Positions 34,535 through 54,834 of a stretch of 64,000 nt of DNA are shown one piece after another (the first letter of the stretch is position 1; each line of letters opens with the position of its first letter). The stretch spans positions 4,476 to 68,475 of the forward strand of contig JACPFF010000026.1 in assembly GCA_016183065.1 (NCBI GenBank). Reading direction: 5' to 3'. This stretch comes from Deltaproteobacteria bacterium. Its GTDB lineage: Bacteria > UBA10199 > GCA-002796325 > JACPFF01. Both the position numbers and the translations under genes were made by a program. The notes under the pieces are model-generated. The model made no database searches. It saw nothing but the letters and a program-made list of their open reading frames with translations, and had not been told where the DNA came from.

Positions 34535-34616
34535 ACCATTACAGGGGCTCACGTCGCCCCCTCCAGCGGCAAAGCCGCTGGAGCCTCCCCCTCTCGCGCG
34601 CGGTGCGCGCTGGGGA
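34535..34616 (+). repeat. GC-rich palindromic (REP-like) element, copy 2
   Basis: About 94% identical to 8263-8345. Here the CTCCAGCGGC-AAA-GCCGCTGGAG stem is perfect. Confidence 0.8.
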
Positions 34617-34744
34617 ACGTCTACTGAAGATCGGTTTGACACATTCACGGTTTTTGGCTACAGGCGCGGCATTGTTCTCTCGAAGATCAGCCTCACAAGG
34701 CGTCGCCTGATTGCGAAGATGTTGGTATCTGCGCACGAGGAGCT

Positions 34745-35137
34745 ATGAAGAGAAAAATCCGGTATATCATTCCATTGCTCCTCATTGGGGGCGTCATTGG
34801 CTATCTCTTCAGTAGCGCCTTCCGATCGGCCATCCAGTATTACGTCACCGTGGCAGAACTTCAGGCCGCACCGCCGCCACCGGGCCGCATTCTCAAGGTT
34901 GGAGGGACGGTGAAGTCAGGAACCCTCACCCAGACCGGCTCCCGGCCCGTCACGTATCAGTTCACGGTGGCCCAAGGCGACGACGAACTGCCGGTGCGAT
35001 ACACGGGGATGGTCCCCGACACCTTCAAAGAGGGGGGCGAGGTCGTGGCGACCGGCACCTTGGGCGCTGACGGGACATTTGAGGCCACCCACATCCTGGC
35101 AAAATGCGCCTCGAAATATGAGGCAAAGGCCCCGTGA
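34745..35137 (+). CDS. ccmE: Heme chaperone CcmE, CxxxY variant
   Basis: N-terminal anchor and OB-fold blocks (ILKVGGTVKSGTL). C-terminal HILAKCASKYEAK with Cys where canonical CcmE has the heme-binding His. Confidence 0.85.
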   Translation: MKRKIRYIIPLLLIGGVIGYLFSSAFRSAIQYYVTVAELQAAPPPPGRILKVGGTVKSGTLTQTGSRPVTYQFTVAQGDDELPVRYTGMVPDTFKEGGEVVATGTLGADGTFEATHILAKCASKYEAKAP

Positions 35138-38390: not shown

Positions 38391-39059
38391 TCAGTTGTCG
38401 ACCACGCCCTGCGCTGCGATGGCAAAGGCAGAGACAAAATTTCCGTGCGTGGCGGTACGATAATGGCATTCCCATGGTCCATAATGGGCCCGCCGATGGG
38501 GGTCATCCACACGGATATCGGTCAATCGTAGATTCGGGGTGGGTGGGAGCGCCTTGAGGCAGGCTTCCTTGATACACCAGAGTACCTTGCGGCGTGACGG
38601 CACGATGCGGTCATGTGGATGCCATATTCCATGTTGCATAGAGTGGAGTCTGTCGCGGCATTCAATGTCACAGCCGATACCAATACGACCGAGGTAACGC
38701 GCGTGCACATGCGCAATGACAGCAAAACACCATCCCGCTGCATGTGCCAGTGTGACGACAAATGGGCATCCCCTGTTGCGACAGCGCAACTGCGGATCGA
38801 AACTATGTCGGTGTCGTCGATTCGTGACTGACGATAATGCGTAGAGCGTCTGTGCGATCCACCATCGGCCAAATAACCGTTCAGCACGACGATCGGGATG
38901 GCGCTGCGTTTGAATATGTGCCCATTCGATGTCGTCAAAACAGGATCGATATGCCTCTTCCGGCATATGCAGCAGGATGGGACCTACATACACCTGTTTA
39001 ATGTGCAGCGGTGGTCGCATGTGCAAGAAATACTCTGTTGTGTGTAAGGCGCAGCCCAA
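38391..39059 (-). CDS. Sfp-type 4'-phosphopantetheinyl transferase
   Basis: VTLAHAAGWCFAVIA...RIGIGCDIE (G.D.E motif) and LWCIKEACLKAL (W.xKEA.xK motif). Start uncertain (39059 or 39020). Confidence 0.7.
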   Translation of the reverse strand: MGCALHTTEYFLHMRPPLHIKQVYVGPILLHMPEEAYRSCFDDIEWAHIQTQRHPDRRAERLFGRWWIAQTLYALSSVTNRRHRHSFDPQLRCRNRGCPFVVTLAHAAGWCFAVIAHVHARYLGRIGIGCDIECRDRLHSMQHGIWHPHDRIVPSRRKVLWCIKEACLKALPPTPNLRLTDIRVDDPHRRAHYGPWECHYRTATHGNFVSAFAIAAQGVVDN

Positions 39060-40273: not shown

Positions 40274-41212
40274 TTATTGTAGCCGGCGGAGTGTCAGACC
40301 AATGATGACCTCGCCGGGTTCGATGAATAGACACAGACATCGTGTGTTATTTGGCATATCGCTCTTGGCAAGCATCGCCAGGATTTCCAATCCATGGGCC
40401 ATGCCACAGCAACCGTTGTGCCACGCCATACCGGTACGTACGTGCGAAAATTGTTCCAGCACGAGCGGAGCACACGCGGGATAAATGACCTGCGAGCATG
40501 TCGGTGGATGCTGGCGAAAAAAATGCGTCAGCTGTGTCATCGTGTCATCCAACATCATGTCCCATGCATGATCAGCCCAGGCGAACGGGTGTGGATGATA
40601 ATATGCGATACAATCTTCATACACATACGTCGGTCCTTCTGATGGAATATCTGTCGAGACAGATACCACCCCCGCAGCATCCGAAAGCCATCCCAGCGGC
40701 GAGAAGGCGCGATGCGCTGGCGCAAGGACCCGTTCAGCCCCCACAATGAGGCTCGTCGCAGAGGCCGATTGAGACTGGACCCAGTCAATGGTTTCCTGGA
40801 ATGCGAGGCCCCATGTGGCGCCTCCCTGGTATTCTACCGTAAATGTCTCCGATGCCCGAATACCGGTGATATGTTGCAACCATGCCGCAGGGCATATGTG
40901 CAAATCTTCCGGGAAGGTCTGATGGCAGTAGACAAATTGTTGGCAGGAAGCGTGTGGATAGGCCTTCAATACTGCGGCGGCCAGTTCGACCTGACTCAGG
41001 CGAGGGCTTTGCACAAATGCGTGAGACCGTCCCTCCCACGCCATCGGAGGGACATGGTGGCGAGGTAACAGTCCATGGGTACACAAATGCAAATAGTGTA
41101 ACGAATCAAAGGGATCTTCGCTATGACCTTCCAGATATTCTGCCCAGGATCTGAGGGATAATACCTCACCAACCGGTAGTACGGATGGTGTATGGATATA
41201 GACATCATGCAT
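40274..41212 (-). CDS. KASIII (FabH)-like thiolase-fold protein lacking the nucleophilic Cys
   Basis: TFTVEYQGGATWGLAFQETIDWVQS...SLIVGAERV and LSDAAGVVSVS parallel FabH A-A-C-S-G-F...VVGAE and GDGAGA blocks, but the Cys position reads GGAT. Confidence 0.5.
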   Translation of the reverse strand: MHDVYIHTPSVLPVGEVLSLRSWAEYLEGHSEDPFDSLHYLHLCTHGLLPRHHVPPMAWEGRSHAFVQSPRLSQVELAAAVLKAYPHASCQQFVYCHQTFPEDLHICPAAWLQHITGIRASETFTVEYQGGATWGLAFQETIDWVQSQSASATSLIVGAERVLAPAHRAFSPLGWLSDAAGVVSVSTDIPSEGPTYVYEDCIAYYHPHPFAWADHAWDMMLDDTMTQLTHFFRQHPPTCSQVIYPACAPLVLEQFSHVRTGMAWHNGCCGMAHGLEILAMLAKSDMPNNTRCLCLFIEPGEVIIGLTLRRLQ

Positions 41213-42488
41213 ATCCGGTAACCAGCTGTTGGCCCTTTGCGAGAGTACGCCATGTCATTTGGGGACTGAGCATATGGATACAGCCGTTGCTGCCAGCCCA
41301 TTCTGCGGGAAAACCCTCAAGGGCGCGCCATACCGCGCTGGTCGTTGGTCCATAGGCTCCCGAGTTGAGAAAGACGAGGTAATCGCCGATGGCCAAACGA
41401 GGTGCTGTTACACGGGTGGGCCATGGAAGACGCTGTCCATGGAGACGGTACGAGACGGCAGTTGGCAGCTTTCCACGTTTCCAGCCGTCACGATGCAGCC
41501 CGGCACCAAGAAAATGGCGATTCTTTGCGAGAAAACTTCCCGCGGATAATCCGTGAAGGGCTGGTGTCGCCGCGACTTCCACCTGTTGCAGGTCGCCGTC
41601 CATTGCGACGTGTTGCACGCGTGCAAAAAAACACCCCGCCGGACCGATAATATAACGGCCTGACTCCAGGTAAAACAGGCAGGGCGGGAGTCCGGTCGCG
41701 TGATAGGCGCGGACATGTTCCTGTACTGCCTCGGCGAATGATTCAAATGCGCACTCATGCTCGTCTTCGTAGTAGGGAATGCCGAGACCTCCCCCGACGT
41801 CAACTTTGGTGCATATGGCGCCTGTCTGACCAAACTGACGCGCCTGCGCGATGACCTGTCCTACGTTCCATGCTGCATCCGTTGCGGAGGCAATCCGAGT
41901 CCCCACATAGATATGGATGCCACAGACCTGGAGAGGAGATTGTCGATGGATGGCATCGTGCATGCAGTGAAGGGCCTCATCGCGTTCGAGACCAAATTGT
42001 GTGGTGCGACCCCCCATCGCCATGCGAACGCCCCGAACCTCGTACGTAGGATTAATGCGCACGATGGCCGTTGTCGGACATCGACGCGTGGTGGCAATAT
42101 GCCGCAACATGTGGAGCTCGGACGCGGATTCCACGGCAACCGCGCCGATCTGGCGCTCGACCGCTAGAGTGAGCTCCGCACTGCTCTTTCCGGGGCCGAC
42201 AAAACAGATGGTTTCCGATGCAAATCCACTGCGCAACGCCAGTAATAACTCTGCACCAGAGGAGACATCGGCCCCACACCGTTCCTGCGCCAGCAATGTG
42301 AGGAGCGGCGGCGCTGGATTCGCCTTGAGTGAATAGAGCAGATGCATATTCTCTGGCAGTGCGCTCTGCATCGTGCGCACACGTGATCGTACGATGTCCA
42401 TATCATAATAATAGCCTGCCGTCAGCTCAGCGGTGACACATGCCGTGTAGAGTGCTCGTCCATTGTGATGTGCGTCGCACAGATGCAT
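41205..42488 (-). CDS. PLP-dependent fold-type III decarboxylase (Orn/DAP/Arg decarboxylase family), PLP-Lys present
   Basis: LLYSLKANP, GIHIYVGTRI, VDVGGGLGIPY, ESGRYIIGPAG and GDYLVFLNSGAYG. Start chosen at MHLCDAHH (ATG 42488, GGAGGA 9 nt upstream). The GPxCxxxD loop is absent. Confidence 0.75.
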   Translation of the reverse strand: MHLCDAHHNGRALYTACVTAELTAGYYYDMDIVRSRVRTMQSALPENMHLLYSLKANPAPPLLTLLAQERCGADVSSGAELLLALRSGFASETICFVGPGKSSAELTLAVERQIGAVAVESASELHMLRHIATTRRCPTTAIVRINPTYEVRGVRMAMGGRTTQFGLERDEALHCMHDAIHRQSPLQVCGIHIYVGTRIASATDAAWNVGQVIAQARQFGQTGAICTKVDVGGGLGIPYYEDEHECAFESFAEAVQEHVRAYHATGLPPCLFYLESGRYIIGPAGCFFARVQHVAMDGDLQQVEVAATPALHGLSAGSFLAKNRHFLGAGLHRDGWKRGKLPTAVSYRLHGQRLPWPTRVTAPRLAIGDYLVFLNSGAYGPTTSAVWRALEGFPAEWAGSNGCIHMLSPQMTWRTLAKGQQLVTGYA

Positions 42489-42516
42489 TGTCGACATTCC
42501 TCCATTGTCATGAGTG

Positions 42517-43455
42517 CTACTGCGCTTGTACGAGGAGACCGCCCCAACTTGCTCCCATGCCATAGGTCAGTGCGAGGGCGTAGGTCGATGTCGGTGGATG
42601 CTGCGCAACGAATTGCATCAACCCCAGCACGCAATCCGTTCCAAAAAGATGCCCCAAGGTCTCCATCTCCCGCTGCAGTAGGATCTGGCCGTGAAATTGC
42701 AAAAGCTCTCGGATACGCTGCCATGTCACCGGATTGCTGATATGGGGAATCACATGTGCAACCTGCTCAATGGTGATCCCATGCCGGACTAAGAGCGCAT
42801 GAACGAGCGAACGGAGGGTGAAAAAATATCGCCAGCTGAGTTCATCGCCAGCTCCACTCATGTCATATCGCGATGCATCGGTGATCACGTGCGTTCCCAC
42901 ATACGCGATTTCCGCGGGGGCATGGCTCAGAATCACCGCTGACGCCGCATCGCCCTGGATCACGCCGTTGCCCAATGTGCGGTGCGTCGTAAAATCCACA
43001 ACGTCGACCGTGGCCACCAACACGTGAGAATATGGCCGTGTCGTCAACCAGTGCGCAGCCTGTCGCATGGCAGCAATAGTGCCTGAACACTGATGTCCGC
43101 CGAGATGCAGGTATGGTCCCGAAACGCCAATGGGCTGCAATATGGATCGAACAAGAGAGCGTCCAGCGGGGAAGTGCGTCATCGGCAATGTGCAACAAAA
43201 TACGGTGCCATCAATTATTGTCGCCGGCATCGATGCCCGTTCGAGCGCACCCGTAATGGCCTCACGCAGCAATGACATCTTTGCATCGGCCGACCATGCT
43301 GCCAGACATGCGACGGTGCGATCATGACCTGCTGTTTCTTGCGTTGCAGAGATGCCCTCTATACGCATGATCGCACGACGCAACCGTCGCACCGTCCCCG
43401 TGACGCTATAGGCACCATGTACATAAATCCGACGTTGACGCTTCTGCTGATTCAT
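42517..43455 (-). CDS. KASIII-like condensing enzyme/acyltransferase (Cys present)
   Basis: Start MNQQKRQRRIYV in ATGA overlap with the upstream stop. GGHQCSGTIAAMRQAAHWL (Cys box), GDAASAVIL, HVIPHISN, GHLFGTDCVLGL. Confidence 0.6.
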   Translation of the reverse strand: MNQQKRQRRIYVHGAYSVTGTVRRLRRAIMRIEGISATQETAGHDRTVACLAAWSADAKMSLLREAITGALERASMPATIIDGTVFCCTLPMTHFPAGRSLVRSILQPIGVSGPYLHLGGHQCSGTIAAMRQAAHWLTTRPYSHVLVATVDVVDFTTHRTLGNGVIQGDAASAVILSHAPAEIAYVGTHVITDASRYDMSGAGDELSWRYFFTLRSLVHALLVRHGITIEQVAHVIPHISNPVTWQRIRELLQFHGQILLQREMETLGHLFGTDCVLGLMQFVAQHPPTSTYALALTYGMGASWGGLLVQAQ

Positions 43456-44429
43456 GGATCCACGGGATCTGCTGAGAGAAATGGCGAGGGAACCTGCTGG
43501 ACCGGAACAAGGGAGCCATGCGTATAGAGCATCTCGAGCGGCGCGGGATGGCTGATAAAATACAACGGGCTTCGATAGTGCGCACTGCCGGCATTCGGCA
43601 GTGCGATCAGATCGCCTGGGTGAAGTGCAGGAGCGGGTATATCGACCGCCAACAGATCTTGCGGCGTACACAGCGGTCCACAGAACGTGGTTGGACGCAC
43701 TGTCGCCTCTGCTGCACTGTACGGGAAGAGTATCGGGTACTTCTTGCGCAACGCATTTCCCCGTTGTCCGGCATCCCAGAGCACGTTTGTTCCACCACTC
43801 ATGATTGCATACTGACGTCCGTGGACCTGCTTCACCGTGCGTACCACCAGCCACAAGGTACAGGCCTGATGCAGCAGTGCTTCTCCATGGAACACCATGC
43901 AGCGAATGTCATGATGTTCGCAGAACTGTTGTATGCAATGTGACAGAGCATCATGGTCCTGGATTGATGCCCCCCGCGCATCAACAAGCCATTGTTTAGG
44001 GCGTTGTGCGATAGACCGCAGGGGTGCGCATTGAATGAGCTTCGGCAGGACATGATGGGGAATACAGGCGATCGAGTGAGAGGCTGGACAGGATGCCAGT
44101 GCCAGCCGTGTCCAGTCTTCTGGGGATTCGATCCACAGAGCATGCTCATTCAGACAGCACACGTCAGATGGCGGAATATTCGTCAACTGAAGATAGGAGA
44201 TCCACGCTGTTGTCGGAATGACGACATGGCAGCACAGCTGTTCGTGAATCCGTCGCACAACGGCAAGGGTTGGCTCTGTTTGGAGGTCGTACACATGCCG
44301 TATCCATGGGGGATATTGCTGCCCCACTGTGCGGCAGTTTGCCTCCAATTGTGGGATGTCAACAACGACAAACGCCTCCTGGCCGCGTCGTACCCACTGC
44401 GTCAGTTGCTCTAGGTAGGGAAACTGCAT
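43452..44429 (-). CDS. Degenerate fold-type III decarboxylase paralogue (PLP-Lys replaced by Gln, Cys loop retained)
   Basis: HVYDLQTEPTLAVVRRI aligns to LLYSLKANPAPPLLTLL. FHGEALLHQACTLWLVVRTVKQVHGRQYAIMSGGTN aligns to the EPGR region. FCGPLCTPQDLL and GDLIALPNAGSAHY are retained. Confidence 0.6.
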   Translation of the reverse strand: MQFPYLEQLTQWVRRGQEAFVVVDIPQLEANCRTVGQQYPPWIRHVYDLQTEPTLAVVRRIHEQLCCHVVIPTTAWISYLQLTNIPPSDVCCLNEHALWIESPEDWTRLALASCPASHSIACIPHHVLPKLIQCAPLRSIAQRPKQWLVDARGASIQDHDALSHCIQQFCEHHDIRCMVFHGEALLHQACTLWLVVRTVKQVHGRQYAIMSGGTNVLWDAGQRGNALRKKYPILFPYSAAEATVRPTTFCGPLCTPQDLLAVDIPAPALHPGDLIALPNAGSAHYRSPLYFISHPAPLEMLYTHGSLVPVQQVPSPFLSADPVDP

Positions 44430-44457
44430 GGCGGTTATGCGTACACGGTATCAGACT

Positions 44458-45828
44458 TCACCCTTGTGCTGGACAAAGGGGTGAGGAGAGCACGTCCGAA
44501 GTGAAAAATGTATGTATACGTTGTGCGAGCATCTGCTGCAGTATGAGGCAACGGTCGCGAGTCGAGGCGAACACGGCGTACATAAGACGCGATCTGGCGG
44601 GGATCTCCCGTAGTCGACTGACCGTGGCCCAATTCATGATCATGAGCCCTTCATCGGTGCGATAGGGGAGTGCTTTGACGACACGGTCATGAAACTCGGA
44701 GAACGTTGGACGATGCTGCAATGTAAACATCACCTGGTTTGATAAGAGACATAGACCGTGATGTCGCGCCTGATCCAGGGCCCATTGAAAGGACGAGTTG
44801 TTGAGTCGTGCGTTAATTTCCAGCAATGGATACACGGTTCCATTCTGAGCCACTAGCCCATCAACCCCAACAAGGCCCGTATAGCGGGCCGAGGCGAGTG
44901 CCGCTCCGATGACGTCGGCCGCATGACGGCACGTTGCCTCAATGTGCGCATCGGGCATCGCTGGCGTAAAATGACCGAGATGTTTACATCCCTCGACCAG
45001 GGCCTCTTTGTAGAGATAATAACTGACACGACCGGACGGGTGGAGAAAGAACTGATAGTTGAGGTCGTGGCGCTTTTCAATAAAGGTTTCAACAATCATT
45101 GTGCATGAATTGATGCTTCGGCGCTGGAGATATTCCAGATAATGCTCGAGTTCGGCTGTGGACGCGCACATGCGAATGCCGCGTCCACTGACTCCCATTG
45201 GATCTTTGAGCAACACCTTTCCATGTGTCTCTTGAAGCAACCGTGTGGCAATGTCATACAGCGCTGCCGGCGAATTGGCGATCAGCGAAGGGACGGTATG
45301 CGGCAATCCCGTCAGGCGGGAGGAAAAACACTTATCATTGACGCGATGGGTCACGTCAGAGGATGCACTGATATTTGGGATGCCCGTGTCTTGCACCAGT
45401 TGATCGGCTGCGATCGTGGCGCCATAAAAGAAGAAACGGAGACGATTGCGCAGCGGATGGGCAGCAAGGGCTGCAAGAGTCGGCGGATCACGGCAGATCA
45501 GCTCGCAGATGTCCAACGTTGGATCGTCGTGTTGCACGATCAGCATGCGACAACGCGCCAATCCGTACTCCTGCAGATATGCAAGGAACTGTGAATCCGG
45601 CGCGCGACGCAAAATCACGATATCCTGTGGGCGTGCCAACAGGAGAACCAATTCCTCCATTGCGGCAATCACCTGGCGCTCCGTTCGCGGCGCGACGGAG
45701 GGCCCCATAATGTTCAGTGGATTTTTTCGTGGCCAGTGACGTTCCACTTCACATTCGATGGCCCAAATAACGGGATGGGGACCGATCCAGTGGAGCAGTG
45801 GAAGTGCTATCGGAGAAAAGTGGAGCAT
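44458..45828 (-). CDS. ATP-grasp ligase
   Basis: KVLLKDPMGVSGRGIRMCAS, MIVETFIEKRHDLNYQFF and VYPLLEINARLNNSS are ATP-grasp nucleotide-binding and Mg blocks. Start at 45828 (GGAAAGGAAAG upstream); alternatives are 45921 and 45708. Confidence 0.65.
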   Translation of the reverse strand: MLHFSPIALPLLHWIGPHPVIWAIECEVERHWPRKNPLNIMGPSVAPRTERQVIAAMEELVLLLARPQDIVILRRAPDSQFLAYLQEYGLARCRMLIVQHDDPTLDICELICRDPPTLAALAAHPLRNRLRFFFYGATIAADQLVQDTGIPNISASSDVTHRVNDKCFSSRLTGLPHTVPSLIANSPAALYDIATRLLQETHGKVLLKDPMGVSGRGIRMCASTAELEHYLEYLQRRSINSCTMIVETFIEKRHDLNYQFFLHPSGRVSYYLYKEALVEGCKHLGHFTPAMPDAHIEATCRHAADVIGAALASARYTGLVGVDGLVAQNGTVYPLLEINARLNNSSFQWALDQARHHGLCLLSNQVMFTLQHRPTFSEFHDRVVKALPYRTDEGLMIMNWATVSRLREIPARSRLMYAVFASTRDRCLILQQMLAQRIHTFFTSDVLSSPLCPAQG

Positions 45829-46348
45829 CGCTTTCCTTTCCGGCATCTTGTTCGAATGCGGTCCATGCGCGCCGCAGATAGCGGCGTAAGACAAAGGCAT
45901 ATTTACTGATATCAACACCATACAATCGGACGTGATATTGTTGATATGACGTGTCCGCGGCGATCCGGAACACTACGGAGGGGATGATCTCGCAGGTCTC
46001 AGGGTTCAGTCGCCGGAGGTTGAGCCAACTCATAAGCTCACCGGCCGGACCATCGAGATGGAGGAGAACCCAGAGCGGAACCGTTTCTCGAAGGACCAGT
46101 CGCATTTCTCCATGTATCTGCAGCATCGCGCCGGAAAGGCCATAATGTACATGTGGTGCGCGGATGTACACGAACTGGTCAGGCCGTGCAGTAGTGGAAA
46201 AGACCTCGGGACGAAGCACTCCGGCATTACCGCAGTGACGGTAGAACATCGCCGCGATATGCTGTCCCCCAGTGACAGTCAGTGGTGCCCATCGCCGTGA
46301 CATGCGTATGAACGCATATGGTGCCAGGTGTTGTGTGTGGCGCCTCAT
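45749..46348 (-). CDS. Hypothetical protein (199 aa) inside the biosynthetic operon
   Basis: ATGA coupling with the ACP stop supports translation. No recognised motif. The 3' end overlaps the ATP-grasp ORF. Confidence 0.4.
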   Translation of the reverse strand: MRRHTQHLAPYAFIRMSRRWAPLTVTGGQHIAAMFYRHCGNAGVLRPEVFSTTARPDQFVYIRAPHVHYGLSGAMLQIHGEMRLVLRETVPLWVLLHLDGPAGELMSWLNLRRLNPETCEIIPSVVFRIAADTSYQQYHVRLYGVDISKYAFVLRRYLRRAWTAFEQDAGKESDAPLFSDSTSTAPLDRSPSRYLGHRM

Positions 46349-46629
46349 GCCGCACCAGCCTCTTGTTGTTGCGGTACTGTTAAGAGCTTTTGCACAAGCA
46401 GAGATACCAAGGCGCTGAGGCGCTCGAAGAGTTCTGGTGAGAGTTCGTCATCATCAAAAACAACGTGTAACTGGTTTTCAATGTCAACGATCAATTCCAT
46501 TACCCCGAGTGAGTCGAGCCCGATCTCAAAGAGGTTCGTCTCCAGCGAAAGCGAATGGTCTGTTGCACTGAGTTTGACGATCCGCGTGATCATGGGGTTC
46601 AGAATCGTCATGATCTGTTGCTCATTCAT
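46345..46629 (-). CDS. Stand-alone acyl/peptidyl carrier protein
   Basis: 94 aa. LFEIGLDSLGVMELIVDIE contains the DSL phosphopantetheine attachment motif. Confidence 0.85.
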   Translation of the reverse strand: MNEQQIMTILNPMITRIVKLSATDHSLSLETNLFEIGLDSLGVMELIVDIENQLHVVFDDDELSPELFERLSALVSLLVQKLLTVPQQQEAGAA

Positions 46630-47644
46630 GGTGCGTGCCTTTCTCGTGTCCGTAGTGCATCGGACGTGTCGGGGTGAAAATCATTGTGCAGAGAGTCGTT
46701 CCGAGGCCCGTTGCATGCAGTGCCACCGGCTTCTTTGCGCCTCGTCGCAAAACTTCCATCAGGCATCCAATGGCGATATGTGCAGATGTCAGTGCGTATT
46801 CCCGAACGTGGTCGTCAATAATAGTCCGCTTTGTCCGGGGATACGATGTCAGTCGGTCCATGGCCCGGTTCAATGGGGGATTGTTTGTCACAATGAATTC
46901 CATATCGTCGGCGGTGAAGCCCGTCTGAGTGAAGGCCCGTTCATATTCGTGGAGTGACCATTGCACACCCTTTACGGCCAGTGTGCGCAGCGTTTCCAAT
47001 GGTTCGCGATACCGTCGGCCGCCCTGGGGAATGCAGCGTGAGGCCACGTAGTGAATGGGGCCACCCTCGCGACTCAGGAGGACGGCGCTCCCAGCATCTC
47101 CAAAGATCAGATGGTTGACCACCCGTGGTTCACCACAATGCGTTGCCACGCAGTCTCCACCAGCCACGATGACCCGATGGATGTCGGGACGGGCGGACAT
47201 CACATACCACGCGGCTTCAATCGCGGCGATGCTGGACGCACAATTACGCTGAGTGACATGTGCGACGTAGCGCAGATCCATCATGCCTGTCAGTTCAGCA
47301 AGGCGCGATGGCATATTGATCGTAGTATCCTCGGGCCATGGAATGGCATCATAATAGAGCAAGGCATCGACGGCCGCGGGTGGCAGCGCATTGTTGGCAA
47401 GCAATTGCTCAACGGCCATCACGGCCAGATCCAGTGGGCGCTCGCTGCTCGCGATAGGGACAGAGGCGTACCCTGCGGCGCGATACGATGCGGGATCGAG
47501 CGAGGGGGTTGAGACATGATCATAGTTGGTGTCGAGACGCGTTCCCGCTGCAATGCGGGCCCGTTCGACGGCAATGACCTGTTCAACAGTGTAGCGTTTT
47601 GGTGCGGGGACGTACACGCAATCCTGGATGCCGATAGCGGCCAT
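46622..47644 (-). CDS. KASIII-like condensing enzyme/acyltransferase (Cys present, atypical His/Asn positions)
   Basis: Start MAAIGIQDCVYV with GAAAGGAGGA RBS. TQRNCASSIAAIEAAWYVM Cys box, IVAGGDCV, FGDAGSAVLL. Confidence 0.6.
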   Translation of the reverse strand: MAAIGIQDCVYVPAPKRYTVEQVIAVERARIAAGTRLDTNYDHVSTPSLDPASYRAAGYASVPIASSERPLDLAVMAVEQLLANNALPPAAVDALLYYDAIPWPEDTTINMPSRLAELTGMMDLRYVAHVTQRNCASSIAAIEAAWYVMSARPDIHRVIVAGGDCVATHCGEPRVVNHLIFGDAGSAVLLSREGGPIHYVASRCIPQGGRRYREPLETLRTLAVKGVQWSLHEYERAFTQTGFTADDMEFIVTNNPPLNRAMDRLTSYPRTKRTIIDDHVREYALTSAHIAIGCLMEVLRRGAKKPVALHATGLGTTLCTMIFTPTRPMHYGHEKGTHHE

Positions 47645-49767: not shown

Positions 49768-50769
49768 TTATTGGTGATATCGCAGACGCAAATCCGCCAA
49801 TCCGGTCACAGCGCGTACTTTGAATGGGGCCGCAGGGTTCGTGGCCACGTCAACGTGGACATCTGACAGGCCACTTTTGATGGTTGGGGCCACGACGGCC
49901 CCTTCGGGGAATTCAAGCGTGGAATCTGTGGCACCCGCACGAATGTCGACCTCTCCGGACGACGGCATCTGTATCCAGCGGAGAAACAATTCTCCCAGCC
50001 CTGTGCGGACCTCGACAGTTGACGAGCGGATCTCTCCCCAAAGGGTTCCCACGCCAACTTTTACTGCAAGTGGGCCTGCCAGGTTGGTGAGATGGAGTGT
50101 CCCTTTGCGCACTTCGGCAGTGATCGCAAGGCCCGAGGGGACCATGAGACCGACATCCACCTCGCAATCACCAGGATCCAGCACGGCCTTCTCGGTTTTG
50201 ACAACGATGCTATCTGCTTCCGTCGTCACTTCGGTTTGGCAGCTTGGACTGCTCTTGCGTGGGTAGGTGCGCAGCTCGATGGTGTCTGTCGCAATACCGG
50301 CGACATGTACCACGCCCACATCATGCCGCACAGTGAGGTGATCGACCTGCACTGCCGGAATCACCCGTGTGATATCGGGTGCCGTACTGGTGTCAAAGAC
50401 AAAAGCGGCATTTCGACCGGTTGTTTCTGCGACCTCTGTGGACATGTCGCGCTGTGTGCCGACGAATTGCGTAACGCTTGCGCGAAAAGATGCAACCGCT
50501 GCACGCACATTGTGCTCGACGGTGTGCGCCACACTGGTGGCAGTATTGCGTGCCGTCGCCCATATGGTTTGTTCATCCCAGCGGGAAGCCAATGCTCTGG
50601 TCCCGCCAAGCCATTGCATGGCCGTCTGTACCTCGTCGACCGCTTCAACCACATGGTCAACAAAAGATGCGGCGGTTTGTTGCACGCCAGATGTCACGTC
50701 AGCGATGAATCGCTCGATGTAACATGCGGGCACATTTGTACTGCTACTGCAGGTGCGTAGGTCTCCCAT
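49768..50769 (-). CDS. DUF4097-like beta-helical protein, no obvious signal peptide
   Basis: Repetitive V.V....G.L.G.I....V.V.TG.G strands (LAVKVGVGTLWGEIRSSTVEVRTGLGELFL) typical of the putative-adhesin DUF4097 fold. Confidence 0.5.
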   Translation of the reverse strand: MGDLRTCSSSTNVPACYIERFIADVTSGVQQTAASFVDHVVEAVDEVQTAMQWLGGTRALASRWDEQTIWATARNTATSVAHTVEHNVRAAVASFRASVTQFVGTQRDMSTEVAETTGRNAAFVFDTSTAPDITRVIPAVQVDHLTVRHDVGVVHVAGIATDTIELRTYPRKSSPSCQTEVTTEADSIVVKTEKAVLDPGDCEVDVGLMVPSGLAITAEVRKGTLHLTNLAGPLAVKVGVGTLWGEIRSSTVEVRTGLGELFLRWIQMPSSGEVDIRAGATDSTLEFPEGAVVAPTIKSGLSDVHVDVATNPAAPFKVRAVTGLADLRLRYHQ

Positions 50770-50852
50770 GAGACACCTCCTTTGGTGTTTGGTCAGGTAA
50801 GCAAGTGAATATCGCCATCAGTCAGCAATACGAACGATGCCGCGGAATGGTG

Positions 50853-51539
50853 TTATGATGACTGCGGATACTGCAGTGTGACGCTGCCAAAACCCACCTT
50901 GGCCTGCAGCAAAAACCCCGAGGTGCTACTGGTTTGTAATGCATTGATAATGCGACCAAAACCTTGCACGAGGTCCGGTCGGATGGTCGTGCCGCGGGGA
51001 AAGGTCAATGTTACGACCCCAGCGCCCGCCTTGATGGCGAGAATTCCGCGCTGTGGCACGTGGCCCCAGACAAGGTCGACGTGGCCCGCGCCCAGCTTGA
51101 TGTGGGTGTCCTCCGAATCGATGGTGCCTCGGACATGGCCCGCACCCATGTTAATATGCAATGGCCCCCGGAGATGCGCGAGCTGCACCCTGCTTGCTCC
51201 ACTGTCGGCACGCACCGCCAGTGTGCGCGGCATCGTGACCACAAGATCCACCTCACAGCTCAGGCCGGAAAAGAGGGCATGTGCGGTTTTCACGAGCACG
51301 GTGTCTCCTTCCGTGCGCACTTTTGTCAGACAGCTGAGTCCGCCTTTGACCTTCTCTGCCCGCACGTGAATCGTCTCTGTTTCCATTCCTTCGATCCGCA
51401 CCGTCCCTTCCTCGTGCTTGATCCATACGGTTGTCACGCCTGCCTGCGGAACGGTGTGATCCAGCAACACCTCACCGGCACGCGCAAGACTGCTCCACGA
51501 CAGAGCGCTGATCATGATTGTGACCATCAAGTAGAGCAT
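50853..51539 (-). CDS. DUF4097-like beta-helical protein with signal peptide
   Basis: Start MLYLMVTIMISALSWSSLARA with GGAGG RBS. Same strand-repeat pattern (LHINMGAGHVRGTIDSEDTHIKLGAGHVDL). Confidence 0.5.
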   Translation of the reverse strand: MLYLMVTIMISALSWSSLARAGEVLLDHTVPQAGVTTVWIKHEEGTVRIEGMETETIHVRAEKVKGGLSCLTKVRTEGDTVLVKTAHALFSGLSCEVDLVVTMPRTLAVRADSGASRVQLAHLRGPLHINMGAGHVRGTIDSEDTHIKLGAGHVDLVWGHVPQRGILAIKAGAGVVTLTFPRGTTIRPDLVQGFGRIINALQTSSTSGFLLQAKVGFGSVTLQYPQSS

Positions 51540-51571
51540 ATATACCTCCTCAGTATGCGTACGGCTGCGTC

Positions 51572-51823
51572 CTAAAACGGAACCTCGTTCATCCACTGCA
51601 TGGCACAGTGCCACCATCCATTATCGGCCACCACAGGCCAGCCGTCAGTGACCGCCTTCATTGCCTGCGCAACATGACCAATGAGCAGTGCCAATGCAAC
51701 CACGAAAGTCAGGCCAGGGACAAGGAAGATCACAAGGTTGATCAGGAGCACGATAAGGATCAACAACATCACGAATAAGCTGATGAATGCCAGGGTTGTC
51801 ATCAGGACCTCCATGACGGTCAT
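51572..51823 (-). CDS. Small 2-TM membrane protein
   Basis: LAFISLFVMLLILIVLLINLVIFLVPGLTFVVALALLIGHV. The start is one of several Met codons around the MATE stop. Confidence 0.4.
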   Translation of the reverse strand: MTVMEVLMTTLAFISLFVMLLILIVLLINLVIFLVPGLTFVVALALLIGHVAQAMKAVTDGWPVVADNGWWHCAMQWMNEVPF

Positions 51824-53190
51824 TGTACGGCGCATTGTGCGACAGCCACGTGCGGTCGTCCAACACGTTGTGATTGCATGAGCCGGCGGTAGGATCGGAT
51901 GAACCAGATGGCCTCCACTGCATGCAAGACATGTGACCATGGTAAGATATACCGCAACGCCATTGGCCCCATCACGGGCACGATGATCAGATAGGGAAGT
52001 AATCGGCCAAAGACCACGACGATCACCAAGGTGATGAGATTGGGATAGGTCTTCCCCGTCCCTTCAAAGGCTCCCTGACCAATAAATCCGAGGGCAAGAA
52101 ACGGAAATCCGACGACCTCAGACTGAAAAACGAGAACGGCAAATTCACGGGCCCCGGTGGCATCGGGAGCCAGCAGCGATAAGGCCGGCGCGATTCCACA
52201 ATAGCAAATGATGACCAGACCTATATATGCGAGCACGATAACACGAAATGTGGCGGACACACCATGCCACGCGCGGGCTATTTGTCCGGCCCCAAGGTGC
52301 TGACTGACAAAAATGCTTATGCCAACACTGATGGCAATGGCGGGGAACAGCGCCATGGTGCGGACTCGTTCAAGAAGACCAAGGGCAGAGAGCGTTTCTG
52401 TGCCATAGTGGGAAAAAAATCCGACGGTCATTCCGGCCTCGATGGCCCCCAGAAGATTGCCTGCCATTACCGGCACGGCCATCAACAAAAATTGCCGCAG
52501 CCATCTCTGAGAAACGGCCATCCATCGCGCAGGACGCCCGCGGATGGCCAAGCAACGCATATAGACCGCGGTGCACACTACCGAAATCCACATGGCGACA
52601 ATCGTCGAAAGTCCGATGCCACTGATGGAGAGATGGCCCGACCACAATAACGCGCCTTGGAGCGCGACTTTGGTCCCTATGAACGTCAGGGATCCAACAT
52701 AGGACGGTGAAGTATGGCCAGTCCCACCGCACAGGGCCGCTTGATAGGCCCGAACGCACCAGGGAACGATGCTGGCCACAAAGCACAAGGCATAGAGGGT
52801 AAACCCCTTCGAGACTACGGGAGACATGGTGAACACTCGAGGCGCAATCGGGAGCAGGGCAAATCCGCAGACGGTCACGAGGAGGCCCACTCCCACGAGA
52901 AGCCCCCATCCCGTATCGCGCACCTCTGCTAATTGCTGCGGGTCACGCGTTCCCACCGCCCGGCCAATCAGTACGATCAATGGGATACTGAATCCTTCCA
53001 GCACCGCATACACGACAAAGAGGCAGGGCGACAAATAGGTGGCTACCGCAATATAGTCGGCTGTGAGTCTTCCCAAAAAATAGATATCGACCGAGAGCCA
53101 GAGGCTATTGATCACCATGCTGGCGAAAATTGGTGCTGAAAGTCGTGCAATGGCACGACCGATCGGTTGCGTTGTGATATCGTCTCTCAT
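51820..53190 (-). CDS. MATE-family efflux transporter
   Basis: Start MRDDITTQPIGRAIARLSAPIFASMVINSLWLSVDIYFLGRL in ATGA overlap with the upstream stop. 12 TM with a two-lobe repeat. Confidence 0.75.
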   Translation of the reverse strand: MRDDITTQPIGRAIARLSAPIFASMVINSLWLSVDIYFLGRLTADYIAVATYLSPCLFVVYAVLEGFSIPLIVLIGRAVGTRDPQQLAEVRDTGWGLLVGVGLLVTVCGFALLPIAPRVFTMSPVVSKGFTLYALCFVASIVPWCVRAYQAALCGGTGHTSPSYVGSLTFIGTKVALQGALLWSGHLSISGIGLSTIVAMWISVVCTAVYMRCLAIRGRPARWMAVSQRWLRQFLLMAVPVMAGNLLGAIEAGMTVGFFSHYGTETLSALGLLERVRTMALFPAIAISVGISIFVSQHLGAGQIARAWHGVSATFRVIVLAYIGLVIICYCGIAPALSLLAPDATGAREFAVLVFQSEVVGFPFLALGFIGQGAFEGTGKTYPNLITLVIVVVFGRLLPYLIIVPVMGPMALRYILPWSHVLHAVEAIWFIRSYRRLMQSQRVGRPHVAVAQCAVQ

Positions 53191-54122
53191 GGCAGTTGCG
53201 TAATGAAATGATCGATAGCGGTCAGAAAATTTTCGGGTTCCTCTTGGAATGGATTGTGTCCCGAGTGGGAAAATATGATGCGTTGGGCATGGTGTATCGC
53301 CTTCCAATAGGTCTCCAGACACGCGCGATCGACAATGCGATCATGCGTGCCACCGATGACCAACGTCGGACACTCGACACGAAGCAGTTGCGGGGTAATA
53401 TCCCTCGTCATGACGCTGTGATATTCGCAGGCTGCGAACAAGGTGTCATCGGCATCCTGCAGACTGTTCGCATCATATTCCCCGGTGCTAAGCGTGCTGC
53501 GGATATTGGCCTCCATGGCCGTGCGAGTGGCATCGTGGTCCCGATAGTACAAACCCGCGATGCGAGCATAATGGAACAACTGTGTAAATCGCGCGAATCC
53601 CAATGGGAGTTGAGTAATCCGTGTCAGGTTGTGCAGGGCCTTGGCATTGTCAGAGAAAAAACCCCGGAGATGGCAGAGGAGATTATACAGCATCTCCGGA
53701 AACGAGGCGGGCCCGCACACGTTGATCAACGCCCGTGTCCGTCGGGGCATCTGACTGGCAAAGAGCCCGGCGAGCATGCCGCCCCACGAATGTCCCATGA
53801 CAATCATCGGTGGAAGGGCAAGCTGCTCATGCATGTGGCACAGGCCCACAAGGAATGCATCCGGATCATGATCCTCGCACGGGATGTCTCGTGGAGAATG
53901 TCCACATCCCGGTTGATCCACCCATAACACCGTGTAGCGGGCTTCCAAGAGGCGACCACAACAGGCAGAAAAGTATGCACAGTTGTCACCGGGTCCCCCG
54001 TGGAGAAATAGGACGACGGGTTGATCCGTTGCGTGGCGGACCAGTCGGTAGGCGAATGGTGGACTGGTGCGTGTAAACTCCCACTGAAATCTGTCTTGGG
54101 CCCCCTCGATCATGCAAGTCAT
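53187..54122 (-). CDS. Alpha/beta hydrolase, proline iminopeptidase-like (S33)
   Basis: VVLFLHGGPG oxyanion block, GHSWGG nucleophile elbow, C-terminal SGHNPF His. Alternative start at 54173. Confidence 0.75.
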   Translation of the reverse strand: MTCMIEGAQDRFQWEFTRTSPPFAYRLVRHATDQPVVLFLHGGPGDNCAYFSACCGRLLEARYTVLWVDQPGCGHSPRDIPCEDHDPDAFLVGLCHMHEQLALPPMIVMGHSWGGMLAGLFASQMPRRTRALINVCGPASFPEMLYNLLCHLRGFFSDNAKALHNLTRITQLPLGFARFTQLFHYARIAGLYYRDHDATRTAMEANIRSTLSTGEYDANSLQDADDTLFAACEYHSVMTRDITPQLLRVECPTLVIGGTHDRIVDRACLETYWKAIHHAQRIIFSHSGHNPFQEEPENFLTAIDHFITQLP

Positions 54123-54136
54123 TGTCGGCAGTTTCC

Positions 54137-54700
54137 TCAGTGGTCGTGCGTGATCCTGGGGCGGGTAATGCATGCGAGATCCAACCGAATGCGCTTATTA
54201 TCTAACGAAACACAAATTGTTGCGCGGTGTTTTCGTTTGGAGAATTTGAGAATCATCCCTTCTTTTCCCTGTAAGGGGCCTGAGATAATATGTACGCGAT
54301 CGCCCTGTAACTCACCATGGGAGAGCCCCGCTGTCCCCGTATTGCCGGTTAACGCCTGCAGCAGATCCATTTCATGCGATTGCACGGGAATTAGTGACTC
54401 TCCGAGGCGGACAGGGCCATACATACTGTCAGGCCTGTTGTCGATCACGTGCCGCAGCACAGTTGGAGCACATTGAATAAATGCGTATCCCGGATAGAGC
54501 GGTCGTCGGCGTAACTGAAATGCTCCCCGATGGTATTCCAGCAACAGACGCATGGGTTGGAATATGCGGATGATTTTTTGCCCGAGACGTTGTCGCAATA
54601 TCTCCAAGCCCTGTGTTGTGGCCCGTTGTTGAAACGCCAATGCCCACCATGCCTGTTGTGACTGCGTGTCTATTATGCCCTCTCTTTCATGTGCCGTCAT
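54137..54700 (-). CDS. Specialised NusG-family paralogue (NGN + KOW), first gene of the biosynthetic operon
   Basis: NGN: WWALAFQQRATTQGLEIL...RRPLYPGYAFIQ. KOW: GDRVHIISGPLQGKEGMILKF. Alternative start at 54715. Confidence 0.7.
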   Translation of the reverse strand: MTAHEREGIIDTQSQQAWWALAFQQRATTQGLEILRQRLGQKIIRIFQPMRLLLEYHRGAFQLRRRPLYPGYAFIQCAPTVLRHVIDNRPDSMYGPVRLGESLIPVQSHEMDLLQALTGNTGTAGLSHGELQGDRVHIISGPLQGKEGMILKFSKRKHRATICVSLDNKRIRLDLACITRPRITHDH

Positions 54701-54818: not shown

Positions 54819-54834
54819 AGCAAGCACCGTGCCA
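54819..54834 (-). promoter_or_regulatory. Sigma-54 (-24/-12) promoter
   Basis: Minus strand reads TGGCACGGTGCTTGCT, which equals the consensus TGGCAC-N5-TTGCW. It lies 119 nt upstream of the NusG-like ATG and 40 nt after the preceding stop. Confidence 0.75.

Follow-up and report, generated by a model that had tools for sequence, protein, structure and literature searches.

Positions 43452-46629 of the analyzed DNA probably encode the central part of a carrier-templated pathway of the butirosin/closthioamide type that relies on neither PKS nor NRPS and in which the decarboxylase would be a heterodimer encoded by two genes. The window is a 64,000-nucleotide stretch of contig JACPFF010000026.1 from the deltaproteobacterial assembly GCA_016183065.1. 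The original prediction had placed a stand-alone carrier protein (ACP), an ATP-grasp enzyme, a decarboxylase homologue and one small ORF in this interval, and all four genes are real and lie where it had put them (Table 1).

Operon organization

The ACP/ATP-grasp/decarboxylase triad is enclosed by a minus-strand operon of ~16.5 kb (38.4-54.9 kb). ATGA-type coupling and strong ribosome-binding sites indicated that the genes form a single operon. The putative sigma-54 promoter is one of three exact consensus matches in the window, and the gene of an NtrC-type sigma-54 activator (55469-56920, minus strand) is located immediately upstream of it. The match of the first gene to NF033641 scored 94 bits, under the 125-bit cut-off, and that of the phosphopantetheinyl transferase (PPTase) to PF01648 scored 30.7 bits (cut-off 25).

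Table 1. Features of the operon, listed from the promoter consensus to the last gene
Feature	Position	Strand	Evidence
Putative sigma-54 promoter, exact consensus TGGCAC-N5-TTGCT	54819..54834	-	~120 nt upstream of LoaP-like start
NusG paralogue, LoaP antiterminator type, first gene of operon	54137..54700	-	NF033641 8.4e-27; PF02357
Alpha/beta hydrolase, proline-iminopeptidase family	53187..54173	-	TIGR01250 8.8e-26; top PDB match 3wmr, 6.8e-15
MATE efflux transporter	51820..53322	-	PF01554 1.8e-26; TIGR00797
Pair of beta-rich paralogues (333 and 254 aa)	49768..51617	-	Weakly LiaG-like (LiaG 4.7e-5)
ACAD-like small subunit, 327 aa	48772..49755	-	PF00441 8.6e-18
Acyl-CoA/ACP dehydrogenase, 383 aa	47676..48827	-	Pfam, all three domains present
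KAS III-like enzyme, 340 aa	46622..47644	-	PF08545; AAGGAGG RBS
Stand-alone acyl/peptidyl carrier protein, 94 aa	46345..46629	-	PF00550 2.1e-9
Small conserved protein, 199 aa	45749..46348	-	Translationally coupled to ACP gene
ATP-grasp ligase with pre-ATP-grasp domain, 456 aa	44458..45828	-	PreAtp-grasp 9.9e-9; CPSase_L_D2 1.4e-4
Decarboxylase subunit DCc, 325 aa	43452..44429	-	PF00278 only, 1.7e-10
KAS III-like enzyme, 312 aa from M134	42517..43455	-	PF08545/PF08541
Decarboxylase subunit DCfull, 430 aa	41205..42497	-	PF02784 7e-39; GGAGGA RBS before 42497
Thiolase-like protein	40274..41212	-	hhalign 77% probability, E 2e-5 vs cassette KAS family
Polytopic membrane protein, 424 aa	38998..40272	-	Multiple hydrophobic segments; weak BLAST match to L001 MatE
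4'-Phosphopantetheinyl transferase (start uncertain)	38391..39059	-	PF01648 3.4e-7

Carrier protein and ATP-grasp enzyme

The predicted carrier protein was confirmed by its PF00550 match and by a phosphopantetheine serine within GLDSL. Its top NCBIfam match was the cispentacin ACP AmcB (4.1e-10, under the cut-off), and orthologues are encoded at four relative loci, L001, L004, L086 and L087. The small ORF, which overlaps the ACP stop codon (ATGA), is a conserved gene with five homologues among 1.84 billion representatives; all belong to the same cluster type, and one is the product of the window itself, annotated in a truncated 118-aa form. The best 50 Foldseek PDB matches of its AF2 model (pLDDT 72.8) were all of the ACAD fold and weak (E 3e-3 to 4e-2; TMq 0.30-0.44), and no profile-level sequence link to ACADs was found. 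In its modeled fold, the protein is similar to the N-terminal/beta portion of acyl-CoA dehydrogenases.

The identification of the ATP-grasp enzyme was supported by its Pfam domains and intact catalytic residues: throughout the family, there is little or no variation at K166, K208, the GVSGRG loop, D323, E337-x-N339 and R341. The predicted start at 45828 agreed with the alignment and the ribosome-binding site, because the invariant E29 and W32 fall upstream of the start of the public annotation (416 aa) and GGAAAGGAAAG precedes 45828. No ribosome-binding site was found at the alternative start, 45708.

The solved structures nearest to the AF2 model of this enzyme (pLDDT 94) were the Streptomyces ligase 8ynd, PGM1 (3wvq), LdmS (7r8q) and BesA (8yi6), with TM values of 0.63-0.75. 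These amide ligases share the pre-ATP-grasp domain but act on free substrates and are just 15-19% identical to the enzyme of the operon. Further, the family of that domain, PF18604, was presumably defined from PGM1, and the top NCBIfam match was the Asp-Met ligase LdmS, though at only 9.8e-7. Formally, the structural matches point in the direction that the original prediction had named as contrary to it. Such matches would suit a PGM1/LdmS/BesA-like enzyme that couples a free amino acid with an amine, either free or ACP-bound, while a KAS III-like enzyme primes the ACP from acyl-CoA (two such enzymes of the operon have an active-site Cys and could load it) and the decarboxylase acts on the free amino acid or the ligated product. 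We consider this reading unlikely. The structural matches included no thiotemplated ATP-grasp enzyme and, at 15-19% identity, do not discriminate; amide ligation is an activity of BtrJ and CtaD too, so that a ligase-like structure cannot separate the two models. What argues against an amide ligase is that, across the family, the ATP-grasp gene is linked to genes of an ACP and a BtrK-like decarboxylase. To our knowledge, the genes of PGM1-type ligases, LdmS and BesA are not located beside such a pair. Further, neither BtrK nor CtaF accepts free amino acids (for CtaF, PMC7183216).

Gene neighborhoods of related ATP-grasp enzymes

Species genomes gave 574 matches, and 83 relative loci were fetched. 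At these loci, a decarboxylase gene accompanied the ATP-grasp gene in 72/83 cases and an ACP gene in 66/83; KAS III and ACAD genes were neighbors at 70 and 65 of the 83, respectively. As had been claimed, no adenylation (AMP-binding) domain was present in the 37 window ORFs scanned, and domain scans of the window ORFs detected no papain-like transacylase of the BtrH/CtaG type. The butirosin-type logic of the original prediction is supported by its context, namely this linkage, the BtrK-like decarboxylases and the absence of an adenylation domain from the ORFs scanned, but the decarboxylase it had named is incomplete (see below).

Most mined loci with CtaD homologues belong to two families, associated with a KAS III-like protein (PF08541) or a glycosyltransferase, and such pathways are reported to be common among Firmicutes and Actinobacteria (Dunbar et al., 2020; PMC7183216). 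The present locus, with its ATP-grasp enzyme, decarboxylase, carrier and PF08541 KAS III, fits the large uncharacterized KAS III-associated family of that study but is deltaproteobacterial. No product of a KAS III-type member was found in the literature searched.

A decarboxylase apparently split between two genes

The gene at 43452-44429, which had been taken for the decarboxylase, encodes a protein whose homology to fold-type III decarboxylases is confined to the C-terminal domain. The top solved relative of this protein, DCc, was BtrK (2j66, 3.4e-18, residues 179-308), and the C-terminal domain is intact, with an invariant CGPLCTPQD loop. The remainder is degenerate: Gln occupies the position of the PLP lysine (Q/S/C/S/R across five orthologues), FHGEA stands where ESGRY is expected, and a deletion of ~95 residues has removed the His and Gly-loop motifs of the barrel. 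Without the lysine and this segment, DCc probably cannot bind PLP alone.

The PLP-binding subunit is the product of a separate gene, DCfull (41205-42497), outside the originally predicted interval. DCfull retains the motifs of the PLP-binding barrel (SLKAN, GIHxY, GGGLGIPY, ESGRY and SGAYG), but where the Cys loop is expected it has a conserved insertion that contains no Cys. BtrK, a Glu-S-ACP decarboxylase, was the best solved relative of DCfull as well (7ru7, 8.4e-43, vs 1.9e-32 for the top DAP decarboxylase). Every motif lost by DCc or DCfull is retained by BtrK and by ten aligned single-gene homologues. In fold-type III enzymes, the Cys-containing loop is supplied by the partner subunit. 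Judged by its motifs, DCc is the half of a two-gene enzyme that carries the non-catalytic barrel.

DCc orthologues were present in 5/5 copies of this cluster type (the window, L001, L004, L086 and L087), and the DCfull partner was found in the window, L001 and L086, which are all the copies whose contig extends far enough. The recurrence of the complementary pair wherever the contig reaches points to an obligate heterodimer that has a single active site, and DCc and DCfull appear to build that site together.

Alternatively, DCc could be a decaying duplicate without catalytic input, or a regulatory or scaffolding relic, beside an ordinary DCfull homodimer. The absence of the PLP lysine, together with roughly one-quarter of the barrel, would be consistent with decay, as would the poor conservation of the N-terminal part (24% identity across the five orthologues, vs 43% for the C-terminal part) and the shortening of the L086 orthologue to 250 aa. 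However, five divergent clusters (42-63% identity between their ATP-grasp enzymes) keep DCc intact and in the same place; its CGPLCTPQD loop is invariant, and its gene is translationally coupled to the next, the stop codon overlapping (ATGA) the gene of the 312-aa KAS III-like enzyme. Further, the loop kept by DCc is exactly that lost by DCfull, in 3/3 orthologues seen. A relic is therefore improbable. In ornithine decarboxylase, losing the trans Cys impairs decarboxylation without abolishing it, and a DCfull homodimer could thus keep some activity.

Other genes of the operon

Further enzymes of the operon are likewise apparently paired with degenerate partners. The 383-aa dehydrogenase, whose top PDB matches were of the MCAD/SCAD type (1.8e-47), has a putative catalytic Glu in ILEGT, as seen in its translation; in the neighboring ACAD-like subunit, the C-terminal domain alone is recognizable and the EGT motif is absent. 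This subunit is related to the "175-aa" partner in cassettes of Actinobacteria and Firmicutes. At the FabH triad positions, the 312-aa KAS III-like enzyme has Cys-His-His in the alignment and the 340-aa enzyme Cys-Asn-Ala, with Cys alone retained; the latter aligned with the cassette KAS family at an hhalign E of 1.3e-51. The thiolase-like protein, with Gly in the Cys112 column and no active-site Cys, probably serves a KAS III as its non-catalytic partner. Both this protein and the polytopic membrane protein, possibly a second MATE/MOP-like exporter, have orthologues in L001 and L086. The iminopeptidase-family hydrolase is a candidate amidohydrolase or thioesterase; its top match, 3wmr, we take to be VinJ. 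The beta-rich proteins are 32% identical to each other. In a hydrophobicity scan, the shorter showed an N-terminal hydrophobic segment, a possible signal peptide, and the pair possibly has a self-protection or envelope role.

An operon that modifies a membrane lipid or the envelope under sigma-54 control (for example by attaching a head group, beta-alanyl or GABA, or by making an amino lipid), with no secondary metabolite, might also combine KAS III and ACAD enzymes, possibly exported LiaG-like proteins, two membrane transporters and an adjoining sigma-54/NtrC-type regulator, and a Paenibacillus polymyxa relative encodes an LpxL-like acyltransferase. We regard this as very unlikely, since the LoaP-type antiterminator, MATE efflux, dedicated PPTase and patchy taxonomy typify specialized-metabolite clusters. 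Further, it concerns the fate of the product alone and leaves the mechanism of the triad unaffected.

Predicted substrate and pathway

According to the original prediction, the amino acid could not be read from the sequence, but the choice can be narrowed. Two sister clusters, L001 and L086, include genes of both glutamate mutase subunits (E and S), suggesting 3-methylaspartate there and, here, aspartate leading to beta-alanyl-ACP rather than GABA. In vicenistatin biosynthesis, ACP-loaded 3-methylaspartate is decarboxylated on the carrier, and a mutant without the mutase uses Asp (PMC11284099). The window has no glutamate mutase and its ATP-grasp enzyme belongs to a different subclade from the mutase-linked enzymes, so that glutamate may be used instead. 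We consider L-aspartate the most likely loaded substrate and L-glutamate less likely.

BtrJ/BtrI/BtrK and CtaD/CtaE/CtaF provide precedents in which an ATP-grasp enzyme loads Glu or Asp and decarboxylation occurs on the carrier (PMC7183216; PMC11350588). From the gene content, motif patterns and synteny observed here, we infer the following catalytic steps and product. The cluster PPTase would convert the ACP to its holo form. We propose that the ATP-grasp enzyme then loads Asp/Glu by making the acyl phosphate of the side-chain carboxyl and passing it to the ACP thiol. With the amino acid still on the carrier, the two-gene decarboxylase would remove its alpha-carboxyl and yield beta-alanyl-S-ACP (or GABA-S-ACP); in the heterodimer, DCfull would contribute the PLP lysine and cofactor-binding barrel, and DCc the Cys-containing loop in trans, to one composite active site. 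The amino-acyl-ACP would then pass to the heteromeric ACAD and to KAS III-like enzymes with Cys-less thiolase-like partners. A second action of the ATP-grasp enzyme may protect the amino group, to be deprotected by the iminopeptidase-family hydrolase, and MATE pumps would export the product.

Comparison with known systems

The ATP-grasp enzyme is likened to BtrJ and CtaD by gene context and published descriptions. Butirosin biosynthesis in Niallia (Bacillus) circulans shares with the operon the stand-alone carrier, ATP-grasp enzyme, fold-type III decarboxylase, lack of an adenylation domain and predicted omega-aminoacyl-S-ACP product, and BtrK, the closest solved relative of the decarboxylase, has an identical GPLCTP-D loop. 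In contrast, the decarboxylase here consists of two complementary half-degenerate subunits, and the operon has KAS III-like and ACAD enzymes but no BtrH-type transacylase, BtrG, BtrO/V or aminoglycoside genes; its host is an uncultured deltaproteobacterium known as a MAG, and Asp is favored over Glu. Closthioamide biosynthesis (CtaD/CtaE/CtaF) has the chemistry favored here, in which an Asp-type substrate is loaded and then decarboxylated on the carrier to beta-alanine, but its CtaG papain-like ligase, thioamide synthetase and second PCP are absent from the operon, in which, further, the decarboxylase is split. In the vicenistatin pathway (VinH/VinI glutamate mutase, VinN, VinL, VinO, VinM and VinJ; PMC11284099), a side-chain-tethered dicarboxylic amino acid is decarboxylated on a stand-alone ACP, as proposed here; the glutamate mutase recurs in sister clusters L001 and L086 and a proline-iminopeptidase-family hydrolase in the operon. 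However, vicenistatin biosynthesis loads by an adenylation enzyme instead of an ATP-grasp enzyme, and its modular PKS, VinK acyltransferase and sugar genes have no counterpart in the operon.

The DCc/DCfull pair would follow the same logic as enzyme/pseudoenzyme heteromers such as the FabH-like pair PqsB-PqsC and heteromeric ACADs of the ChsE/IpdE type. In the operon, a thiolase-like protein without Cys accompanies a catalytic KAS III, which would resemble the former, and a complete ACAD accompanies a subunit without the catalytic motif, which would resemble the latter. We know of no bacterial fold-type III decarboxylase described as such a heteromer. Carrier loading and on-carrier decarboxylation are a known strategy; what differs in the present operon is a decarboxylase apparently divided between two half-degenerate genes.

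Organization of the operon

The region 43452-46629, in which a BtrI/BtrJ/BtrK-like triad of carrier protein, ATP-grasp ligase and PLP decarboxylase had been predicted, contained four genes, all on the minus strand. ATGA overlaps were found at two junctions (ACP gene/gene of a 199-aa protein, and short decarboxylase/KAS III), indicating that the four genes are part of one tightly coupled operon, which spans ~54.9 to ~38.4 kb on the minus strand. An AMP-binding (adenylation) domain was absent from all 37 ORFs scanned in the window, in agreement with the original prediction, and no PKS domains were detected in the window ORFs scanned. The longest ORF of the window (881 aa) encodes a histidine kinase.

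Upstream of the LoaP-like gene at the head of the operon, we found an exact sigma-54 consensus and, directly upstream, an activator gene of the NtrC type. These elements suggest that the cluster may be sigma-54-dependent, with processive antitermination in addition.

Genes of the operon in order of transcription, preceded by upstream elements (window positions)
Feature	Position	Strand	Remarks
NtrC-type sigma-54 activator	55469-56920	-	receiver domain; directly upstream
Sigma-54 consensus TGGCAC-N5-TTGCT	54819-54834	-	~120 nt 5' of the operon-head gene
LoaP-type NusG paralogue	54137-54700	-	first gene
Proline-iminopeptidase-family hydrolase		-	
MATE pump		-	
Two LiaG-like beta-rich paralogues	49768-51617	-	possibly exported
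ACAD-like small subunit, then full ACAD	47676-49755	-	
KAS III-like enzyme	46622-47644	-	retains only Cys
ACP	46345-46629	-	94 aa; PF00550
199-aa protein	45749-46348	-	
ATP-grasp enzyme	44458-45828	-	456 aa; PreAtp-grasp, CPSase_L_D2
Short decarboxylase homologue	43452-44429	-	325 aa; PF00278
KAS III-like enzyme	42517-43455	-	Cys-His-His
Full-length decarboxylase homologue	41205-42497	-	430 aa
Cys-less thiolase-like protein	40274-41212	-	
Polytopic membrane protein, then PPTase		-	last two genes

Several other features of the window, which belongs to a Deltaproteobacteria MAG, were observed. Two large multihaem cytochrome c genes (-) adjoin a fused CcmF-CcmH cytochrome maturation gene (30584-37545), a gene content that would fit a metal- or sulfur-respiring deltaproteobacterial host. 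Two ORFs with matches unusual for bacteria, one of 750 aa with a Dickkopf_N-like cysteine-rich region (10941-13193 (+); 1.6e-7) and one of 335 aa with a GRAS domain family match (16553-17560 (+); 2.2e-10), are unrelated to the triad.

The carrier protein and the 199-aa protein

The predicted stand-alone carrier protein was borne out by a PF00550 match (E 2.1e-9), a phosphopantetheinylation serine within GLDSL and the PPTase gene in the operon. The small ORF that accompanied it in the prediction is likewise a real gene: its conservation and its translational coupling to the ACP gene rule out a chance ORF. The 199-aa product had no family match, and only five homologues were found among 1.84 billion representatives, all from the same cluster type; one of the five is the product of the window itself, annotated as a truncated 118-aa protein. 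The top 50 PDB matches of its AF2 model (pLDDT 72.8) were all of the ACAD fold and weak (E >= 3e-3, TMq 0.30-0.44), and hhalign against all cassette families gave no sequence-level relative. On the basis of the model, we treat it as a putative ACAD-like accessory protein.

The ATP-grasp enzyme and its neighbourhood

An ATP-grasp enzyme close to the carrier was also confirmed. The 44458-45828 product matched PreAtp-grasp (9.9e-9) and CPSase_L_D2 (1.4e-4), its catalytic residues are intact (K166, K208, GVSGRG, D323, ExN and R341 are conserved), and its gene lies 520 bp away from the ACP gene, the two being separated by one small gene. Within window positions 44458-45921 (-), the public annotation of this protein (P0001, 416 aa) begins 40 residues late; it loses an invariant EVERHW segment and passes over a start codon that has a good RBS. 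In the family alignment, the invariant E29 and W32 lie upstream of the 416-aa start; further, the sequence 5' of the start at 45828 is GGAAAGGAAAG, whereas no ribosome-binding site precedes 45708. The 416-aa start is thus ruled out, and the originally predicted start at 45828 is the better one.

Scanning one genome for each species by pattern, we obtained 574 relatives of the ATP-grasp gene. In 72 of the 83 fetched loci it was accompanied by a BtrK-like decarboxylase gene, usually directly downstream; carrier, KAS III and ACAD genes were present in 66, 70 and 65, respectively. A second, unrelated ATP-grasp gene of the L-amino-acid-ligase type (LAL_C2, CPSase_L_D2, ATP-grasp_4) is located at 62088-63458 (+), 7 kb off the operon.

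The AF2 model of the enzyme (pLDDT 94) was nearest to the Streptomyces ATP-grasp peptide ligase 8ynd, PGM1, LdmS and BesA (TM 0.63-0.75, 15-19% identity). The PF18604 match and the Foldseek matches to 8ynd and 3wvq (TM 0.67-0.75) point to a pre-ATP-grasp plus ATP-grasp fold closest to that of PGM1. All four of these ligases act on free substrates, and the nearness of the model to them counts as evidence against carrier loading. This likeness is not decisive, because the Foldseek matches included no structure of a thiotemplated ATP-grasp enzyme and because amide ligation is also an activity of BtrJ and CtaD. Moreover, the recurrence of a carrier and a BtrK-like decarboxylase in its neighbourhood argues against a carrier-free action of the PGM1 type. 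Neither BtrJ nor CtaD was named among the matches in homologue searches with the single sequence or with 14- and 41-sequence profiles, in the species-genome scan, or in sequence and profile searches of the PDB. The links to these two proteins are indirect: the locus architecture fits the KAS III-associated class of CtaD homologues (see Discussion), and weak Pfam matches to CPSase_L_D2 and DUF3182 agree with the clade that Burroughs et al. connect with BtrJ-like enzymes. For the enzyme as a carrier loader, the indirect support from its neighbourhood, its intact catalytic residues and its fit to the published family is strong.

A decarboxylase probably divided over two genes

The predicted decarboxylase ORF at 43452-44429 is real and probably functional, and it appears to be one half of an enzyme, the half unable to bind PLP; the half with the PLP motifs is encoded by the long gene at 41205-42497, outside the predicted region. 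The sole Pfam match of the short protein was PF00278 (1.7e-10), the C-terminal sheet domain of ornithine, DAP and arginine decarboxylases. BtrK, the L-glutamyl-[BtrI ACP] decarboxylase, was the best PDB match of both paralogues. The long protein matched it over its full length (8.4e-43, compared with 1.9e-32 for the best DAP decarboxylase) and the short protein over residues 179-308 only (3.4e-18). By these comparisons, BtrK appears to be a nearer relative of the pair than the DAP, ornithine and arginine decarboxylases are.

We aligned both paralogues with their orthologues from L001, a sister cluster that bears a glutamate mutase, with BtrK and with ten single-gene homologues; further orthologues were added later. 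Every motif was present in BtrK and in all ten single-gene homologues. The window does not encode one polypeptide with both the PLP lysine and the Cys loop; instead, the motifs are divided over the two genes.

Active-site motifs in the two decarboxylase paralogues
Motif	Long paralogue	Short paralogue
PLP lysine (SLKAN)	kept	Q (orthologues: S/C/S/R)
GIHxY and GGGLGIPY segment	kept	gone (~95-residue deletion)
ESGRY	kept	FHGEA
SGAYG	kept	lost
GPLCTPxD loop	absent; a conserved insertion without Cys instead	invariant CGPLCTPQD

A stand-alone decarboxylase at 43452-44429 is ruled out, since the PLP lysine is missing. Among orthologues, identity of the short subunit was 43% in the C-terminal domain compared with 24% in the N-terminal remnant. 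The short subunit was present in every one of the five such clusters (the window, L001, L004, L086 and L087), and the long partner was seen in the three whose contig reaches far enough (the window, L001 and L086). A metagenome scan for the short subunit returned two loci only, which matched the C-terminal domain alone; the split type is rare.

In fold-type III decarboxylases such as the ornithine and DAP enzymes, the two subunits of the dimer form the active site at their interface, one contributing the Lys-PLP barrel and the other the Cys loop. The distribution of motifs suggests that the two paralogues probably form an obligate heterodimer in which one active site is complete and the other dead.

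KAS III, ACAD and other cassette proteins

The operon includes two KAS III-like genes (PF08541/PF08545). In an alignment of the cassette loci L002-L083, the KAS III proteins carried Cys-His-His at the positions of the FabH triad (Cys 69/69, His 65/69, His 69/69), compared with Cys-His-Asn in FabH, and thiolase-like proteins lacking the Cys occur alongside them. This pairing recalls PqsB-PqsC. The 327-aa ACAD partner is without the catalytic EGT motif and is related to the 175-aa ACAD C-domain-like partner that takes its place in cassettes of Actinobacteria and Firmicutes; the modelled 199-aa protein may be a third ACAD-like fragment.

The best solved relative of the hydrolase, a member of the proline-iminopeptidase family, was 3wmr, which we take to be VinJ, the deprotecting amidohydrolase of vicenistatin biosynthesis. 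These proteins suggest desaturation of an amino-acyl-ACP by the ACAD, at least one condensation or acyl transfer, and perhaps a cycle of protection and deprotection. A hydrophobic segment at the N terminus and a weak match to LiaG were seen in the 254-aa LiaG-like paralogue; the two beta-rich paralogues may have a role in self-protection or in the envelope.

The cassette of Paenibacillus polymyxa (L008, 8935-21125) encodes, in order, KAS III, ATP-grasp, decarboxylase, ACP, a 290-aa thiolase-like protein, KAS III, a 259-aa protein, ACAD, a 317-aa thiolase-like protein and MATE. An arginase-family hydrolase and an LpxL-like acyltransferase come next, a hint that this lineage may use a guanidino intermediate or a lipid acceptor.

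The amino acid predicted to be loaded

In the mutase-bearing sister clusters L001 and L086, the region between the KAS III gene and the long-decarboxylase gene encodes the E (PF06368, 1.6e-117) and S subunits of glutamate mutase. L086 has a single ATP-grasp gene; L001 has a second, divergent one (25% identity), which suggests that loading and N-aminoacylation are carried out by different enzymes in that cluster. These features of the sister clusters lie at 11327-12646 and 14461-16338 in L001 and at 4513-6365 in L086. In vicenistatin biosynthesis, the 3-methylaspartate that the mutase produces is decarboxylated while tethered to an ACP, and a mutant without the mutase uses aspartate (PMC11284099). 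The sister clusters thus predict Asp or 3-methylAsp as substrate and a beta-amino-acyl-ACP as product.

By analogy, aspartate is the most likely substrate in the mutase-less window, where it would give beta-alanyl-S-ACP. Glutamate, with GABA as the corresponding unit, keeps a smaller but real probability because the window ATP-grasp enzyme falls in a subclade other than that of the mutase-linked enzymes; we favour aspartate over glutamate with modest confidence. The amino acid, which the original prediction held could not be read from the sequence, is narrowed to this extent.

Discussion

CtaD loads Asp on CtaE, and CtaF decarboxylates only the tethered form; BtrJ, BtrI and BtrK perform the same chemistry with Glu (Dunbar et al. 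2020, PMC7183216). Like the butirosin/closthioamide module, the window has a stand-alone carrier, an ATP-grasp enzyme nearby, a BtrK-like decarboxylase and no adenylation enzyme, whereas the decarboxylase motifs, on a single polypeptide in that module, are divided over two genes here. Butirosin and closthioamide are, to our knowledge, the only characterised ATP-grasp-loaded, carrier-templated pathways, a kind that standard PKS/NRPS genome mining misses. Vicenistatin biosynthesis differs in its VinN-type adenylation enzyme and modular PKS, neither of which was found in the window ORFs scanned.

The BtrH/CtaG papain-like transacylase (PF14399), which passes the chain on, gave no Pfam match in the operon; this enzyme is not strictly defining, since it is present in only ~45% of PCP-associated loci of CtaD homologues (PMC7183216). 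Most loci of the 660 CtaD homologues mined in that study belong to two uncharacterised families, one of which has a PF08541 KAS III-like gene and is found mainly in Actinobacteria and Firmicutes (PMC7183216). The window cassette, with its ATP-grasp, carrier, decarboxylase and KAS III genes, fits the description of this family, for which the literature searched gave no characterised member and no known product.

That the triad works by a thiotemplated mechanism is the best available interpretation, and we regard it as fairly likely. It matches the published mechanism, and the triad as such is therefore already known; the original observation stands, with a correction of the decarboxylase ORF. 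Three points are new: the complementary two-gene decarboxylase, the presence of a KAS III-associated family member in an uncultured deltaproteobacterium, and a substrate choice narrowed with the help of the sister clusters that bear the mutase.

If confirmed, the decarboxylase pair would be a clear case of subfunctionalisation of the ornithine/DAP decarboxylase fold into an enzyme/pseudoenzyme heterodimer, a natural experiment in which the two active-site halves of one decarboxylase were sorted to separate genes. It would also be a warning for annotation: one subunit, seen alone, resembles a broken gene.

A more speculative reading, which we consider unlikely, is that the operon is a minimal PKS/NRPS-free line, built almost wholly of enzyme/pseudoenzyme pairs (the split decarboxylase, ACAD with ACAD-like fragments, and KAS III with Cys-less thiolase partners), that converts aspartate into a small N-heterocycle. 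Aspartate, or 3-methylaspartate in the sister clusters, would yield beta-alanyl-ACP, which would be desaturated and would undergo one or two KAS III condensations to give a product such as a 4-hydroxy-2-pyridone/piperidinedione or an alkyl-pyridone. A formal parallel would be the route by which PqsD and PqsBC make alkylquinolones from anthranilate. If this reading were true, it would provide a product class for the large uncharacterised KAS III cassette and its 574 matching loci in species genomes. The decarboxylase would then also be, as far as we know, the first of fold-type III whose composite active site is obligate.
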